A DNA stretch of 64,000 bases from an uncultured bacterium (lineage in GTDB: Bacteria > Omnitrophota > Omnitrophia > Omnitrophales > Abzuiibacteriaceae): the NCBI GenBank assembly GCA_964387845.1, contig CAYLXA010000003.1, positions 96,001-160,000 of the forward strand. The letters run 5' to 3'. Of the stretch, positions 34,863 through 58,240 are shown piece after piece; the first letter of the stretch is position 1; every line of letters begins with the position of its first letter. The notes beneath the pieces were generated by a model. It saw only the letters and a list, made by a program, of their open reading frames with translations. It did not search any database and was not told where the DNA came from. The position numbers and the translations under genes were made by a program.

Positions 34863-35152
34863 TGAACCAACTTTTTAAAAAGGGTTTCTGAACTCGGCAT
34901 TCAAATCCAAAGATTGAATTTTCCTATTGATGATACGGCGGAAAAACAGCCCCGGAGCAAAATGAAAAGTTCGGGAATTATAGCATAGGAGGGTTGATTG
35001 TCAAATGGGTGTTTTAGATGTATTTTTGACAAAATAAATGGAAAAAATCAAAGTTTCATCTATACTTTTATTCTTTAAAAAATAAGCAATCCAAAATCGC
35101 GATACACGGGCATGTCATATAAAATTAGGCTTGATTTCACAAGCTTTACCTC

Positions 35153-36115
35153 ATGAAAAAAGCTATATCAGCGCTTGTTTTTTCTTTGTTCATTATCGCT
35201 CAGGTATTCGTTCTTTGTGAATTAGGAATCCGCACTTACGAATATTTCGTTTATAAAATCCCTTTCCTAAGGTCTATTAGTACTCATTTTGACCCAAAAT
35301 TTGGGTGGGTTGGTTCGCAAGGCGTCTTTTCTTCTTCCCGGCCTAATTTGACTTTATTCGTTGTCGGCGATTCTTATACAAATGGAGAGGGGGTTTCGAC
35401 CGAACACGTTTATTACAACTACCTTCAGCATTACGCAAAAGCATACGTTTTTGTATACGGCGGGTCGGGTTTCGGAAATTTACAAGAATATTTGGTCATG
35501 GACGAATACCTAGATTTGGTCAATCCGGATTTGATTTTGTGGCAAGTAGACGGAAATGATTTTGAGAACAACACATGGGAAATTGAAAGAAGCACATCAA
35601 GAACCGGCAACATCATGATACGGCCTTACTTAATCAACGGAAAGATAGAATACCGGCATCCCAGGCCTTACGGATTTCTTGCCATTCGTTCAAGGTTTTT
35701 TTATAGAGTTTTGATAGCGATCGAAAAATATCAAAAACTACTCACACAGAAAGGCATTATTCTTAATCACGATTCGGAAATCAAACGCAAATATTTTGAT
35801 GCATCTTATAAAGTTACAGCTGAAATTGTGAAAATGGCAAAACATCGTGCCGGCAAAACCCCCGTGGTCGCTTTTATCTCTGACGGAACTTCTGAACGCA
35901 TTAAATCATTTTCTAAGATTTTTAAGGAGAATGGAATTCCCTTTATCGATCAGGTTCCGCAAGTCATGATTGAAGAAACTCGAAAAAGAAAGAAAGATCT
36001 AAGCGCAGGGCCCGGAGTTGGCCACTGGTCTCCCGAGGGGCATTTGATTGTCGCGCAATTTTTAGTGAAGGAATTGATCGAACTAGGTTATTTCCCGCCA
36101 GAATCTCAAACTTGA
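35153..36115 (+). CDS. SGNH/GDSL-family hydrolase, membrane-anchored
   Basis: N-terminal TM; GDSYT (block I) and VDGNDF (block III). AT-rich. Confidence 0.5.
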   Translation: MKKAISALVFSLFIIAQVFVLCELGIRTYEYFVYKIPFLRSISTHFDPKFGWVGSQGVFSSSRPNLTLFVVGDSYTNGEGVSTEHVYYNYLQHYAKAYVFVYGGSGFGNLQEYLVMDEYLDLVNPDLILWQVDGNDFENNTWEIERSTSRTGNIMIRPYLINGKIEYRHPRPYGFLAIRSRFFYRVLIAIEKYQKLLTQKGIILNHDSEIKRKYFDASYKVTAEIVKMAKHRAGKTPVVAFISDGTSERIKSFSKIFKENGIPFIDQVPQVMIEETRKRKKDLSAGPGVGHWSPEGHLIVAQFLVKELIELGYFPPESQT

Positions 36116-36119
36116 CGGA

Positions 36120-36539
36120 TCATTTCTTAACCAAGCCGTTATAGAAATCGTTTTCCAATTCAGCAATCGTCTTAATTAGGATAGGCAAAATGGTGCTATT
36201 AATGTTCACCATACCGCTTTTCAGTAGTGAATCTACTTTTTTAAGATAAAACTCGGGGGGGTTTAAGATTGCTGTGTTCTGGTTGACGCGGAACCTTTCG
36301 ATAGCCAATTTAACAGCAGTTTTTTTATCGAAATCGGAAAGCTGGTCCCATTGCTTAAGATGTCTTGTTAAAGAATTCATAACAATAATATCCGCTTTCA
36401 AAGAAGATGCTTTTGCGTTTATGCCGTAAGACGCGATGCTTTCCGGATTCATCATAACGGCAAGAGTAATTGCGCTTGTTAAGATAAAAAATGCGGCTGA
36501 AAAAATCGGGATTTTTTGATTTGATTGATTTTGTTTCAC
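36120..36539 (-). CDS. Hypothetical small membrane protein (start uncertain)
   Basis: The ORF-track N-terminus runs into the tRNA-derived repeat; GTG at 36539 is a more plausible start. AT-rich. Confidence 0.3.
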   Translation of the reverse strand: MKQNQSNQKIPIFSAAFFILTSAITLAVMMNPESIASYGINAKASSLKADIIVMNSLTRHLKQWDQLSDFDKKTAVKLAIERFRVNQNTAILNPPEFYLKKVDSLLKSGMVNINSTILPILIKTIAELENDFYNGLVKK

Positions 36540-36567
36540 AATAATTTTAATCCAAAATGCCAAAATG

Positions 36568-36592
36568 GCGGAGAGATAGGGATTCGGCGCCC
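36568..36592 (-). repeat. Duplicate of tRNA-Ser(GGA) 3' end (AAAATGGCGGAGAGATAGGGATTCG)
   Basis: Exact 25-nt direct repeat of 36744-36768; att-like duplication. Confidence 0.55.
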
Positions 36593-36747
36593 TCCGCGCG
36601 CAATCCGCGCTCCGGGTCGGCCACCCGCCCTGCAAACCTGATGCTCAGCTTTACTTCGCATCATGCAGGGCTCCCTTCGAATCCCTCATGCCACACCGTA
36701 GGCGGCTTCCTCAGCCGCCACGGTGCCGTCATTTTTCATCAGAAAAA

Positions 36748-36839
36748 TGGCGGAGAGATAGGGATTCGAACCCTAGAGACCCCGTTAAGGGCCTACGTAC
36801 TTTCCAGGCACGCCCGTTCGACCGCTCCGGCATCTCTCC
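36748..36839 (-). tRNA. tRNA-Ser (anticodon GGA), CCA encoded
   Basis: Reverse complement folds as a class II tRNA: acceptor GGAGAGA/TCTCTCC, anticodon loop CTGGAAA, long variable arm, T-loop GGGTTCGAATCCC. Confidence 0.85.
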
Positions 36840-36909
36840 GTAATTACAAAATATAAACAGGTAAAAAGGCTGGTATTATATCAACCTGCGCGCCAAATGA
36901 AACGGAATA

Positions 36910-41810: not shown

Positions 41811-43067
41811 CTAAGCTAAGTACTGATCTAAAACTTTTGGCAGTTTGATGCTGCCATCTGCTTGCTGACAATTCTCGAGTAAACATAGAAACGTTCTCGC
41901 AAGCGCAACGCCGGAACCATTCAGCGTATGGACAAACTTGGGTTTTCCGCCGTCTGCCGGCTTATATTTCACATTGATCCGCCGCGCCTGAAAATCAAAA
42001 AACGTGCTGCAGCTGGATACTTCAAACCATCTTCCGGTTCCCGGCGCCCATGCTTCGATATCATAACATTTTGCCGCTGCAAAACTCATGTCGCCGCTTG
42101 AAAGCAGCAAAACTCTGTAAGGAATCTCGAGAAGCTGCAAAATTTCCTCGGCATCTTTCACCAATTTTTCAAGTTCATTGAGCGACTCTTCCGGCTTTAC
42201 AAATTTTACCAGCTCAACTTTATCAAATTGATGAACACGCGAAAGCCCTTTTGTATCTTTCCCGTAAGAGCCGGCTTCCCTTCTAAAACATGGTGTGTAG
42301 GCCACATATTTCACGGGTAAATCTTTTTCGCCAAGCACATCATCCCGGTGCATATTGGTCACCGGAACTTCCGCCGTCGGGATCAAAAACAAATCATCAT
42401 CTTTGAGCCGGTACATGTCTTCTTCAAATTTTGGAAGCTGGCCTGTGCCGGTCATGCTTGCACGGTTGACCAAAAGCGGCGGCCAAACCTGTTTGTAACC
42501 ATGCTTTTTGGCATGAAGATCGACCATTAAATTAATGAGCGCCCGCTCGAGCTTGGCGCCATCACCTTTAAAAATAGGAAAAGCACTGCCTGAAATTTTG
42601 GCGCCTGTTTCCATGGATAGCCAGCCAAGCGCATTGGCCAGAGCAACGTGGTCCTTGGTTTTAAAGGAGAATTCGGTCTTTTTACCCCATTCCCGCACAA
42701 CCTGATTAGCTGAAGCGTCTTTCCCGATAGGCACGCTATCATCTATAATATTTGGGATATTAAGTATTAATTTATCAATATGTAATTCTATATGCCCCAC
42801 TTTTGAGTCAATTTCAGCTATTTTTTGGGATAATGTCTTTCCTTCTTCTATTTGCTTAGAAATGTCCTTTTTGTCGTGTTTAAGACGGCTTACTTGATCG
42901 TTTAATTCGTTCCGTTTGGCCTTAAAAACATCGGTTTCCTGGATCAATTTACGCTTTTCGGCATCTAAAGCGACGATTTCATCAATGGTTTTTGGGTCGA
43001 CACGCTTTGCGGACAGTTTTTTCTTGTACAAATCTGGGTTTTCGCGAATGAGTTTAAGGTCAAGCAT
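41811..43067 (-). CDS. serS: Seryl-tRNA synthetase
   Basis: MLDLKLIREN N-terminal coiled-coil arm and class II aaRS motifs. Confidence 0.9.
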   Translation of the reverse strand: MLDLKLIRENPDLYKKKLSAKRVDPKTIDEIVALDAEKRKLIQETDVFKAKRNELNDQVSRLKHDKKDISKQIEEGKTLSQKIAEIDSKVGHIELHIDKLILNIPNIIDDSVPIGKDASANQVVREWGKKTEFSFKTKDHVALANALGWLSMETGAKISGSAFPIFKGDGAKLERALINLMVDLHAKKHGYKQVWPPLLVNRASMTGTGQLPKFEEDMYRLKDDDLFLIPTAEVPVTNMHRDDVLGEKDLPVKYVAYTPCFRREAGSYGKDTKGLSRVHQFDKVELVKFVKPEESLNELEKLVKDAEEILQLLEIPYRVLLLSSGDMSFAAAKCYDIEAWAPGTGRWFEVSSCSTFFDFQARRINVKYKPADGGKPKFVHTLNGSGVALARTFLCLLENCQQADGSIKLPKVLDQYLA

Positions 43068-57906: not shown

Positions 57907-58191
57907 ATGGCGTGTGTTTATGTTATTTATAGTCAGATAAAAGAGAAATTTTACGTAGGTTCGAGCAGAGAAGAAACTGCCACCCAAAGAATTCTATCCC
58001 ACAACGCAGGCAAAACAAGATCAACTAAATCTGGCCGCCCTTGGGTGTTAGTATTTGAAGAACAATTTCTCAACTATACGGAAGCAAGAAAAAGAGAAAA
58101 CTTCTTAAAGTCAGGTGTTGGTAGACAATTTATTAAGCAAAAATGGAGAGGTGCCAGAGCGGTCGAATGGGGCGGTCTCGAAAACCGTTAG
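57907..58191 (+). CDS. GIY-YIG nuclease-superfamily protein (YhbQ-like)
   Basis: VYVIYS...FYVGSS...R...H...NAGKTRST...E layout of a GIY-YIG domain. Its last 47 nt overlap the tRNA-Ser(CGA) gene. Confidence 0.6.
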   Translation: MACVYVIYSQIKEKFYVGSSREETATQRILSHNAGKTRSTKSGRPWVLVFEEQFLNYTEARKRENFLKSGVGRQFIKQKWRGARAVEWGGLENR

Positions 58192-58231
58192 GCTCTTATG
58201 GGTCTCCTGGGTTCGAATCCCAGCCTCTCCG
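58145..58231 (+). tRNA. tRNA-Ser (anticodon CGA)
   Basis: GGAGAGGTGCCAGAGCGGTCGAATGGGGCGGTCTCGAAAACCG...GGGTTCGAATCCC...CTCTCC-G; anticodon loop CTCGAAA. Confidence 0.85.
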
Positions 58232-58240
58232 ATTATTTTT

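Follow-up and report, generated by a model that had tools for sequence, protein, structure and literature searches.

A gene-less structured module bounded by a tRNA-Ser 3'-end repeat in an Omnitrophota genome: a candidate minimal mobile element

Transfer RNA genes can be marked by insertions of foreign DNA, and in this work we discuss such a mark at a tRNA-Ser(GGA) gene of an uncultured Omnitrophota bacterium, in a 64,000-nucleotide stretch of contig CAYLXA010000003.1 (the window). Between this gene and ndk there is a short insert delimited by a direct repeat of the tRNA 3' end, and a module of ~125 nt within it, here called alpha, recurs beside serine tRNA genes in two other Omnitrophota lineages. 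We think that the insert may be a cargo-less mini-element flanked by attachment (att) sites, or the remnant of one, with a conserved module of structured RNA or single-stranded DNA; we hold this reading to be evenly balanced between right and wrong. The initial annotation, made from the letters alone, had taken the repeat for the scar of an integrase and had connected it with an AT-rich two-gene island on the ndk side. Its integration-footprint reading is right in kind, but the repeat was attached to the wrong DNA, and the most interesting part of that annotation is its remark that the insert could be a small RNA.

The repeat is an exact 25-mer, AAAATGGCGGAGAGATAGGGATTCG, present exactly twice in the window, whereas no copy is expected from 100 dinucleotide-preserving shuffles. 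Copy 1 (positions 36,744–36,768, minus strand; CGAATCCCTATCTCTCCGCCATTTT in its RNA-strand form, also written CGAAUCCCUAUCUCUCCGCCAUUUU) spans the 3' part of the T-loop, the 3' strands of the T-stem and of the acceptor, G73, the encoded CCA and TTTT. It starts at the C of the T-loop, after the TT of TTCGAAT, and ends 4 nt beyond the encoded CCA. Copy 2 (36,562–36,586, minus strand) is a displaced fragment of the tRNA 3' end that likewise runs into CCATTTT, and if the AGGG in front of it is included, it can fold as AGGG-CGCCGAAU-CCCU, a hairpin similar to a T-arm. The copies are spaced by 182 bp and enclose 157 bp of DNA (36,587–36,743). The initial annotation had recognized the repeat, but it placed the second copy at 36,568–36,592, which is 6 nt too far right, and its values of 176 bp for the spacing and 150 bp for the enclosed DNA have to be corrected. 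Its location of the tRNA 3' end at 36,744–36,768 is confirmed by both ARAGORN and the Rfam tRNA model. The intact gene, with its encoded CCA, is called by ARAGORN at 36,748–36,839 (minus strand) and is matched over its full length by RF00005 with 50.3 bits; it would be the regenerated target of the insertion. Gene and cognate fragment are on the same strand in direct orientation, and the block of identity extends from the T-loop through the tRNA 3' end. A regenerated gene and a displaced fragment mark the two ends of an island in the logic of Islander, and crossover in the T-stem region, the class to which this block belongs, accounts for 1836 of the 3919 islands in that collection (PMC4383910).

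Comparison with related loci allows occupied and empty sites to be distinguished (L001, L003 and the like are labels of compared loci, and P0019 and P0148 of protein sequences). Homologues of its Ndk assign the window to Omnitrophota. The relatives share the order glycosyltransferases, tRNA-Arg, tadA, a ~190-aa protein, tRNA-Ser(GGA), ndk, solute-binding protein and GH94, so the gap from the tRNA to ndk is directly comparable. The empty tRNA-Ser site that the initial annotation had proposed to seek in related genomes is found in L001/L002 (Ndk 92% identical) and L004 (80%), in which the tRNA is followed by ~150–300 bp of unrelated spacer and then by the ndk promoter, with no second tRNA tail, no insert or module and no SGNH island. 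In L003 (85%), the insert is present and the island is absent. It follows from this comparison that the window has two extras, the unit bounded by the repeat and an AT-rich segment at about 35,020–36,561. The tRNA-joined copy of L003 and L087 is followed by CCA, and the distal one by TAT or TAC, like the empty site of L001. Moreover, the distal tail carries the T-stem variant of its own genome, CCCTA (with A) in the window and CCCTG (with G) in L003.

The alpha module (36,564–36,690, minus strand, as delimited by a covariance model and the alignment) includes copy 2, which provides the 3' strand of helix P1 and the tail. The covariance model, R1, was built from the three copies and scores 140 bits in the window, 133 bits in L003 (9,753–9,876) and 118 bits in L046 (5,907–6,053); it finds no further copy in 329 kb of Omnitrophota loci, only weak matches on genuine T-arms. 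All three copies have the orientation of the tRNA and lie directly 3' of it. The copy of L003 adjoins tRNA-Ser(GGA), and that of L046, an Omnitrophota genome of GTDB, comes after serS, tRNA-Ser(TGA), tRNA-Ser(GCT) and a long hairpin. Three blocks of 16, 20 and 22 nt (GGGATTCGAAGGGAGC, GTGGCCGACCCGRAGCGCGG and CGCGCGNAGGGCGCCGAATCCC) are invariant across the copies save for the marked positions, even if the SerS of L046 is just 58% identical to that of the window. The module is thus present in a distant lineage and absent from a close one, at two different tRNA-Ser genes, so it has evidently moved; invariant blocks at 58% SerS identity together with absence at 92% Ndk identity give a patchiness that argues for mobility. 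In L046 the tail is decayed (CCCACTCTCTATA) and the module body is intact, which suggests that the tRNA-identical tail reflects history and not constraint, the P1 strand excepted.

The consensus predicted with RNAalifold is a three-way junction. The 5' strand of the closing helix P1, GGGAUUCG (36,678–36,685, minus strand), is invariant in the three copies and is complementary to CGAAUCCC in either copy of the repeat. Hairpin P2 (36,627–36,671, minus strand) has an outer stem of 7–8 bp, a bulge of 4 nt on the 3' side, an inner stem of 6 bp and a loop of 12–13 nt. Covariation is limited to this hairpin and to three copies: the window and L003 share 13 of its pairs, with 4 double compensatory changes and none broken, RNAalifold marks 4 pairs as covarying, and the loop and the bulge diverge. 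P3/P4 (36,586–36,622, minus strand) is a hairpin of irregular shape. Its internal loop is 3x3 (G.A / variable / A.G), and its terminal loop, that of P4, differs in size, with 5 nt in the window and in L003 but 13 nt in L046. The invariant blocks vary only at positions that lie opposite one another in the 3x3 internal loop, as G/G, A/C and A/U. Compensation in P2, loop variation and the internal-loop pattern are typical of a single strand that folds; P1, P3 and P4 are invariant, and their pairing is that of the predicted consensus.

The suggestion of a small RNA in the initial annotation gains from this conserved structured module in three lineages and gains nothing from Rfam. No Rfam family (Rfam 15) corresponds to the module, either with cmscan on the whole window at gathering thresholds or on 36,400–36,900 at E ≤ 10; this search, which that annotation had proposed, returned only the tRNA itself and artefacts of the tRNA tail. 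The sub-threshold matches, sX4 with 26 bits (cut-off 70) and Plastid-psbl-rps4 with 22–30 bits (cut-off 68), reflect the tRNA-like tail. Membership of the second copy in a genuine second RNA gene had been named as an observation that would refute integration, and this applies in part, copy 2 being a piece of a conserved RNA-like element. Neither ARAGORN nor the Rfam tRNA model calls a tRNA at 36,562–36,747, and no promoter or terminator was called around the module.

The DNA between the copies was correctly described as GC-rich and strongly structured. Its GC content is 63.7%, compared with 45.5% for the window on average, and the 186-nt stretch that begins at the tRNA end and includes copy 2 folds with −95.2 kcal/mol on the minus strand (z −4.6 relative to shuffles) and with −85.8 kcal/mol on the plus strand (z −6.0). 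The palindrome quoted by the initial annotation is found at 36,694–36,725 (minus strand): CACCGTGGCGGC-TGAGGAA-GCCGCCTACGGTG, a GC-rich hairpin with no U-tract. It is specific to the lineage, since unrelated hairpins occupy this position in L003 and L046, and no terminator was called for it on the minus strand between the tRNA and the module. Next to copy 1 there is a trailer motif, TTTTTCTGATGAAAAATGACGG (36,726–36,743, minus strand), which continues into the hairpin and gives local alignments with z 10–12 to the flanks of L087 and L088. Some other readings of this DNA were discarded. The motif CTGATGA 3' of the tRNA could recall a hammerhead ribozyme, but it is missing in L003 and L046. A group-I intron is unlikely, because the repeat and the bases that precede its copies, T in one case and C in the other, cannot provide a U at the 5' splice site plus a terminal G. 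For a second tRNA, a transfer-messenger RNA or an intron-bearing tRNA, no call was made by ARAGORN.

The mechanism that we infer would begin with an insertion at the T-loop of the tRNA, which would leave the 25-nt repeat as its signature. The incoming DNA would bring a new tRNA 3' end, with its encoded CCA and the hairpin, and the old 3' end would be displaced downstream. The inserted or remaining unit would be of ~180 bp and cargo-less, and its distal two thirds would be alpha, a module whose closing helix would borrow one of its strands from the displaced tRNA fragment next to it. The alpha module would be horizontally mobile or repeatedly acquired among Omnitrophota, always in linkage to a tRNA-Ser gene, whether it acts as RNA or as folded DNA and whatever role it may have there. 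Its mobility would most likely be due to a recombinase acting in trans on a minimal att-flanked element, similar to a cis-mobilizable element (CIME). Alternatively, it might spread by homologous recombination, with the tRNA gene and the tail copy serving as homology arms. For a circle or an attP junction, the predicted sequence is ...GGAGGGCGC-CGAATCCC...CCG-CCATTTTTCTGATG....

Several observations weigh against the mini-element. The enclosed 157 bp are far smaller than any autonomous element and hold no open reading frame (ORF), and no tyrosine integrase or other recombinase was found in the interval or beside it, according to the ORF list and Pfam; there is no recombinase gene near any of the three alpha copies. 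The regenerated gene, the displaced 3' fragment and the empty sites speak for the integrase-type footprint proposed by the initial annotation, while the size of the interval and the lack of an integrase speak against it. Furthermore, no full-length element bearing the module was found in IMG/VR, species genomes, JGI metagenomes or phage records. The scans of the first three used exact words, which diverged parents could escape. They gave no match to the module blocks in IMG/VR and only L046, itself cargo-less, among 185,579 species genomes, in which the 81 word matches are, with this exception, chance matches in GC-rich coding sequence; the 7 matches in JGI metagenomes are all due to chance, none being genuine. 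In phage records, blastn gave a sole match of 23 nt, to the tRNA tail (E 0.05), and an 865-aa chimera of the six frames of three modules, compared with 5.8 billion proteins, gave nothing at E ≤ 10.

The sequence pattern itself also raises objections to the mini-element. The compensatory changes and the G.A-flanked loop fit an RNA fold and would not be expected in the double-stranded arm sites of a recombinase. All helices but P2 are invariant, presumably because only three copies are available. The trailer TTTTTCTGATGAAAAA-TGACGG follows tRNA-Ser tails in the P0019 lineage, and in the window it is joined to copy 1 and not to copy 2. This is unexpected for a simple crossover in the T-loop, unless the element brings a host-like trailer, and an insertion 3' of the native trailer would explain this position no less well than a crossover in the T-loop.

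The second extra of the window, the AT-rich island (about 35,020–36,561), lies outside the repeat pair. The initial annotation described it as an AT-rich stretch beyond the second copy that encodes an SGNH hydrolase and a small membrane protein, up to ndk. Its GC content is 38.0%, in comparison to 45.5 ± 2.3%, and the comparison of composition that had been suggested shows it to be the lowest of all same-size stretches in the 64 kb. The island is absent in L001, L003, L004, L087 and L105. The SGNH/GDSL-like hydrolase gene (35,153–36,115, plus strand), convergent with the small gene, matches PF13472 weakly (E 6.4e-6, 27.2 bits, under the Pfam cut-off of 32.9), and its protein has 8 homologues only, with at most 40% identity, among 5.8 billion clusters. 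The small gene, taken from the ORF list (36,120–36,542, minus strand), encodes 140 aa if it starts from GTG, or 111 aa from the ATG at 36,455 (M30), which is the public call. Its protein has a hydrophobic N-terminus and no Pfam match; at E ≤ 1e-3 there are 47 homologous cluster representatives, typically of 150–170 aa, in a family without name, so this small ORF is a real gene. Several homologues align from residues 4–10, which suggests that the true protein is the longer version, hydrophobic N-terminus included. P0148, a protein of 2696 aa, carries five stretches that match the small protein. Neither island protein matches PHROG or PADLOC. On the other side of the island, homology between the window and its relatives resumes at the ndk promoter (TTGACA-16-TGnTATAAT; 34,977–35,004, minus strand), which agrees with the consensus in 12 of 12 positions, is conserved in 5 lineages and forms the proximal edge of the hotspot.

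By the Islander logic (PMC4383910), a segment outside the pair of regenerated gene and fragment is not what the repeat delimits, so the connection drawn by the initial annotation between repeat and island does not hold: the island is distal to copy 2 and has no copy at its far end. We think that the AT-rich segment would be separate accessory DNA in the same hotspot. Its origin is a separate question; it may be an older insertion that has lost its far end, a tentative proposal that we consider doubtful. Copy 2 is followed by CCA, as is seen elsewhere at regenerated ends, and in this sense the segment could be the leftover of an earlier insertion.

The gap between tRNA-Ser(GGA) and ndk is variable in other lineages too. 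The closest relative is L105, with 96% identity in Ndk; its upstream sequence is different again, and its contig breaks off 344 bp before ndk. Right next to the ndk promoter, on the upstream side (150–200), L105 contains TAGGGTTCGCCTACCGTCTAC, a T-arm-like hairpin which may be a decayed displaced tRNA fragment. Contigs that encode one identical Ndk, P0019, show three different contexts before it. One of these is a plain tRNA-Ser, another is an island with a helix-turn-helix protein, an N6/N4 methylase and a ResIII (ResIII/SWI2-SNF2) helicase, and the third is an island with a C5 cytosine methylase and an 868-aa AAA_21-like ATPase. The contigs of this lineage stop 200–570 bp upstream of ndk in 7 of the 10 cases listed. 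The two islands, of restriction-modification or defence-like type, are those of L108 (230–5,071) and L109 (3–3,485), and they lie immediately upstream of ~130-bp units that we call beta; they have a common conserved right end, ...CAAAATCCTGCGGATTTTG...TTCGAACTTCGTCCAA.A.ACACCG, and the contigs stop before their left ends. Such different cargo at the same gap indicates a hypervariable hotspot of recombination or integration, and the alternative of successive att remnants, which the initial annotation had also offered, is a fair description of it. With its small and apparently mobile module, the site does not look like a plain decayed prophage.

Other small units are found at the same tRNA. The beta unit is unrelated to alpha and occurs in L087 (3,684–3,814), in L088 (3,691–3,812) and, as two tandem copies, in L086 (3,549–3,805). 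It follows a tRNA-Ser tail or an island end, starts with TTTT(G/T)CTGATG(C/A)AAAA, as does the trailer of copy 1 in the window, and repeats the tRNA 3' end in its last 12 nt, CCTGYCTCTYCG, an ending also written CCTGTCTCTCCG. L090 has a further unit, gamma, of ~125 nt, which ends in a degenerate tail copy, CCGCTCCTTCG, and is followed by the same CTTATGAAA flank. On the 5' side of tRNA-Ser(GGA), L003 (9,419–9,570) and L090 (3,382–3,530) contain a partial copy of its 5' end, GGAGAGATGCCGG, which is the first 13 nt of the tRNA; it is accompanied in L003 by a duplicated promoter of ~50 nt, and promoter duplication is reported for L090 as well. A body of ~110 nt with two long hairpins comes next, and then a D-loop remnant, GGAGCGGTCG or GGAGTGGCCG. 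Both hairpins show compensatory changes between the lineages, CCCCGACT/AGTCGGGG versus GCCTGACT/AGTCAGGC in hairpin 1 and GCCCCTGCGCT/AGCGCAGGGGC versus GCCCCAAAGCT/AGCTTTGGGGC in hairpin 2. This unit is the 5'-side counterpart of alpha, and it is absent from the window. Fragments of the 5' part of a tRNA gene are a rarer known class, with 159 of the 3919 Islander islands (PMC4383910).

Further observations concern the serine tRNA genes. In L090 (3,653–3,690) and L092 (1,017–1,050), the acceptor 5' strand is copied in the trailer of tRNA-Ser(GGA) as GCGGAGAGA, which can pair with the 3' end of the tRNA itself, CUCUCCGCC. In the window, four serine isoacceptor genes (GGA, TGA, GCT and CGA) are located within 22 kb (36,748–58,232) around serS (41,811–43,067), and the order of serS and tRNA-Ser(TGA/GCT) is common to the window, L001 and L046. 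The Rfam scan of the whole window at gathering thresholds reported 3 of the 5 tRNA genes and missed tRNA-Ser(GGA) at 36,751–36,839 and tRNA-Ser(CGA) at 58,144–58,232. The former reaches its 50.3 bits, over a cut-off of 29, once a short stretch is searched, and a filter that acts against class II tRNAs probably accounts for the two omissions.

The following explanations overlap in part with the mini-element and with one another, and so do the likelihoods that we attach to them. Alpha might be a putative stand-alone gene for a structured noncoding RNA, co-transcribed with tRNA-Ser and either selfish or host-serving, whose 3' end would mimic a T-arm and an acceptor 3' strand, so that the repeat would not be an att scar. 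This is the main rival of the mini-element and, in our opinion, rather unlikely. The three copies are oriented like the tRNA and directly downstream of it, with no space for a promoter of their own and no predicted terminator between, and the folding z of −4.6, the tRNA-grade invariant blocks, the four compensated P2 pairs, the conserved G.A/A.G internal loop and a length change confined to a hairpin loop all suit an RNA gene. Such a gene would not be expected to be missing at 92% Ndk identity and present at 58% SerS identity, or to sit at the genes of different tRNA-Ser isoacceptors; the decayed acceptor-like tail of L046 shows the tRNA-identical tail to be unconstrained, and Rfam has no match even at E ≤ 10. 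A purely local history, in which tRNA-Ser or its 3' part was duplicated in tandem and then decayed with gene conversion, leaving alpha as a degenerate second tRNA-Ser, seems to us quite improbable. The start of the module, AGGGATTCGAA, does resemble a T-stem 5' strand plus T-loop, its end is the T-arm-like hairpin of copy 2 plus an acceptor strand, and GTGGCCGACCCG is similar to GTGGCCGAACGG, the D-loop in the tRNA of L092 (p about 0.01–0.02, uncorrected); there are precedents of duplication, too, in the simple 27-nt 5' tRNA duplicate of L092 and in the tandem beta units of L086. However, the similarity of the module body to the tRNA-Ser genes that reside with it falls short of significance (z < 1 in same-genome pairs), no second tRNA is recognized by ARAGORN or the tRNA model, and independent decay would not leave invariant blocks of 16–22 nt at 58% SerS identity. 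Derivation of the body from tRNA-Ser was discarded also by local alignments with 9 tRNA-Ser genes, which were not significant relative to shuffles, the weak D-loop-like match of L092 excepted.

By analogy with the omega-RNA of TnpB, alpha could be conceived as a guide-type RNA, a scaffold with the tRNA-Ser 3' end as its 3' guide, left by or serving an RNA-guided element that homes to tRNA-Ser. Architecture alone would speak for this, with a structured body of ~105 nt followed, at the end of the element, by 18–21 nt that match the sense strand of the tRNA gene exactly, a layout that the 5'-side units of L003 and L090 mirror with a tRNA 5' fragment and then a two-hairpin body. We regard the guide as very improbable, given that its first 8 nt would be paired in P1, that in L046 it would have 4 mismatches to the local tRNA, and that the flanks of the three copies, the part of the genomes searched, hold no gene for TnpB, IscB or Cas. 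Finally, the repeat pair and the AT-rich island could together form one decayed genomic island integrated at the tRNA, as the initial annotation mainly proposed. It is true that the island is the lowest-GC 1.5 kb of the window and deviant in composition, that the closest relatives lack it and that its genes have few homologues, and the CCA after copy 2 would fit the once-regenerated end of an earlier insertion with the island as its body. Nevertheless, the island is not bounded by the repeat, no third, degenerate copy is found on its ndk side even if 5 mismatches in 21 are allowed, and there is neither an integrase nor any PHROG or PADLOC match, so that a single decayed island appears unlikely to us.

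Comparison with known systems helps to place the mini-element that we propose. Islands and prophages integrated at tRNA genes by tyrosine integrases (PMC4383910) resemble it in the intact tRNA beside a direct 3' fragment, in the identity block from the T-loop to the 3' end, in the regeneration of the tRNA end by the insert, in the empty sites of relatives and in the alternative cargo at the same tRNA gene. They differ in having an integrase and a length of kilobases instead of 157 bp; here, gene-bearing foreign DNA is found only outside the repeats, and the interval is itself a conserved structured module. CIMEs are decayed integrative elements that keep attL and attR and have lost their genes for recombination and transfer (PMC5704250). 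In the window, two repeat copies, which would function as att sites, flank a gene-less unit at a tRNA 3' end, and arrays with other elements or remnants occur as well (the tandem beta units of L086, the islands of L108 and L109). In contrast, the CIMEs described are kilobase-sized and traceable to a parent integrative and conjugative element (ICE) or integrative and mobilizable element (IME), whereas the unit here is approximately attP-sized, evolves with preservation of structure and has no related full-length ICE, IME or prophage in the exact-word scans.

Some guide RNAs are encoded at one end of an element, directly beside their target; examples are the omega-RNA or reRNA of TnpB and the delocalized crRNAs of CRISPR-associated transposons that home to tRNA genes. 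Alpha is like these in its scaffold placed directly before a stretch identical to the tRNA target, a likeness of architecture only, and unlike them in that no effector gene is near and the would-be guide is partly base-paired. Free-standing homing endonuclease genes of the GIY-YIG type, such as segB of phage T4, occur in tRNA gene clusters. Similarly, this hotspot contains small GIY-YIG genes or pseudogenes at the same tRNA-Ser site: an intact gene of 85 aa downstream of the tRNA in L094 (2,806–3,063) and also in L095–L097, a truncated pseudogene before ndk in L117 (119–295), and, in L087 (3,377–3,490), a 37-aa remnant that has a 5' tRNA fragment on one side and the tRNA on the other. They differ from SegB in that the proteins of Omnitrophota consist of a catalytic domain of 85 aa and lack a recognizable DNA-binding part; the window has no such gene.

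The role of tRNA genes as landing pads for islands is textbook knowledge. What differs here is a gene-less module of ~125 nt, attP-sized and structure-preserving, beside different serine tRNA genes in distant Omnitrophota. A bolder proposal, which we put forward as a speculation and consider improbable, is that alpha and, by analogy, the 5'-side units of L003 and L090 are members of a new class of small structured RNAs, carried on minimal mobile units that colonize serine tRNA genes. These units would insert at the T- or D-loop, supply a replacement for the tRNA end that lets the host gene survive, be expressed from the tRNA promoter and include the displaced piece in their fold, and the RNA would have a role in targeting or maintenance, as a guide, as a cofactor of recombination or as a decoy for a factor that recognizes tRNA-Ser. 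The locus marks a hotspot for defence and accessory genes, which explains the assembly breaks just upstream of ndk. Should alpha prove to be a minimal mobile unit or an RNA carried by an element, it would show how small a tRNA-targeting selfish element can be, and it would offer a handle on mobile DNA in a phylum that is known almost only from metagenomes.

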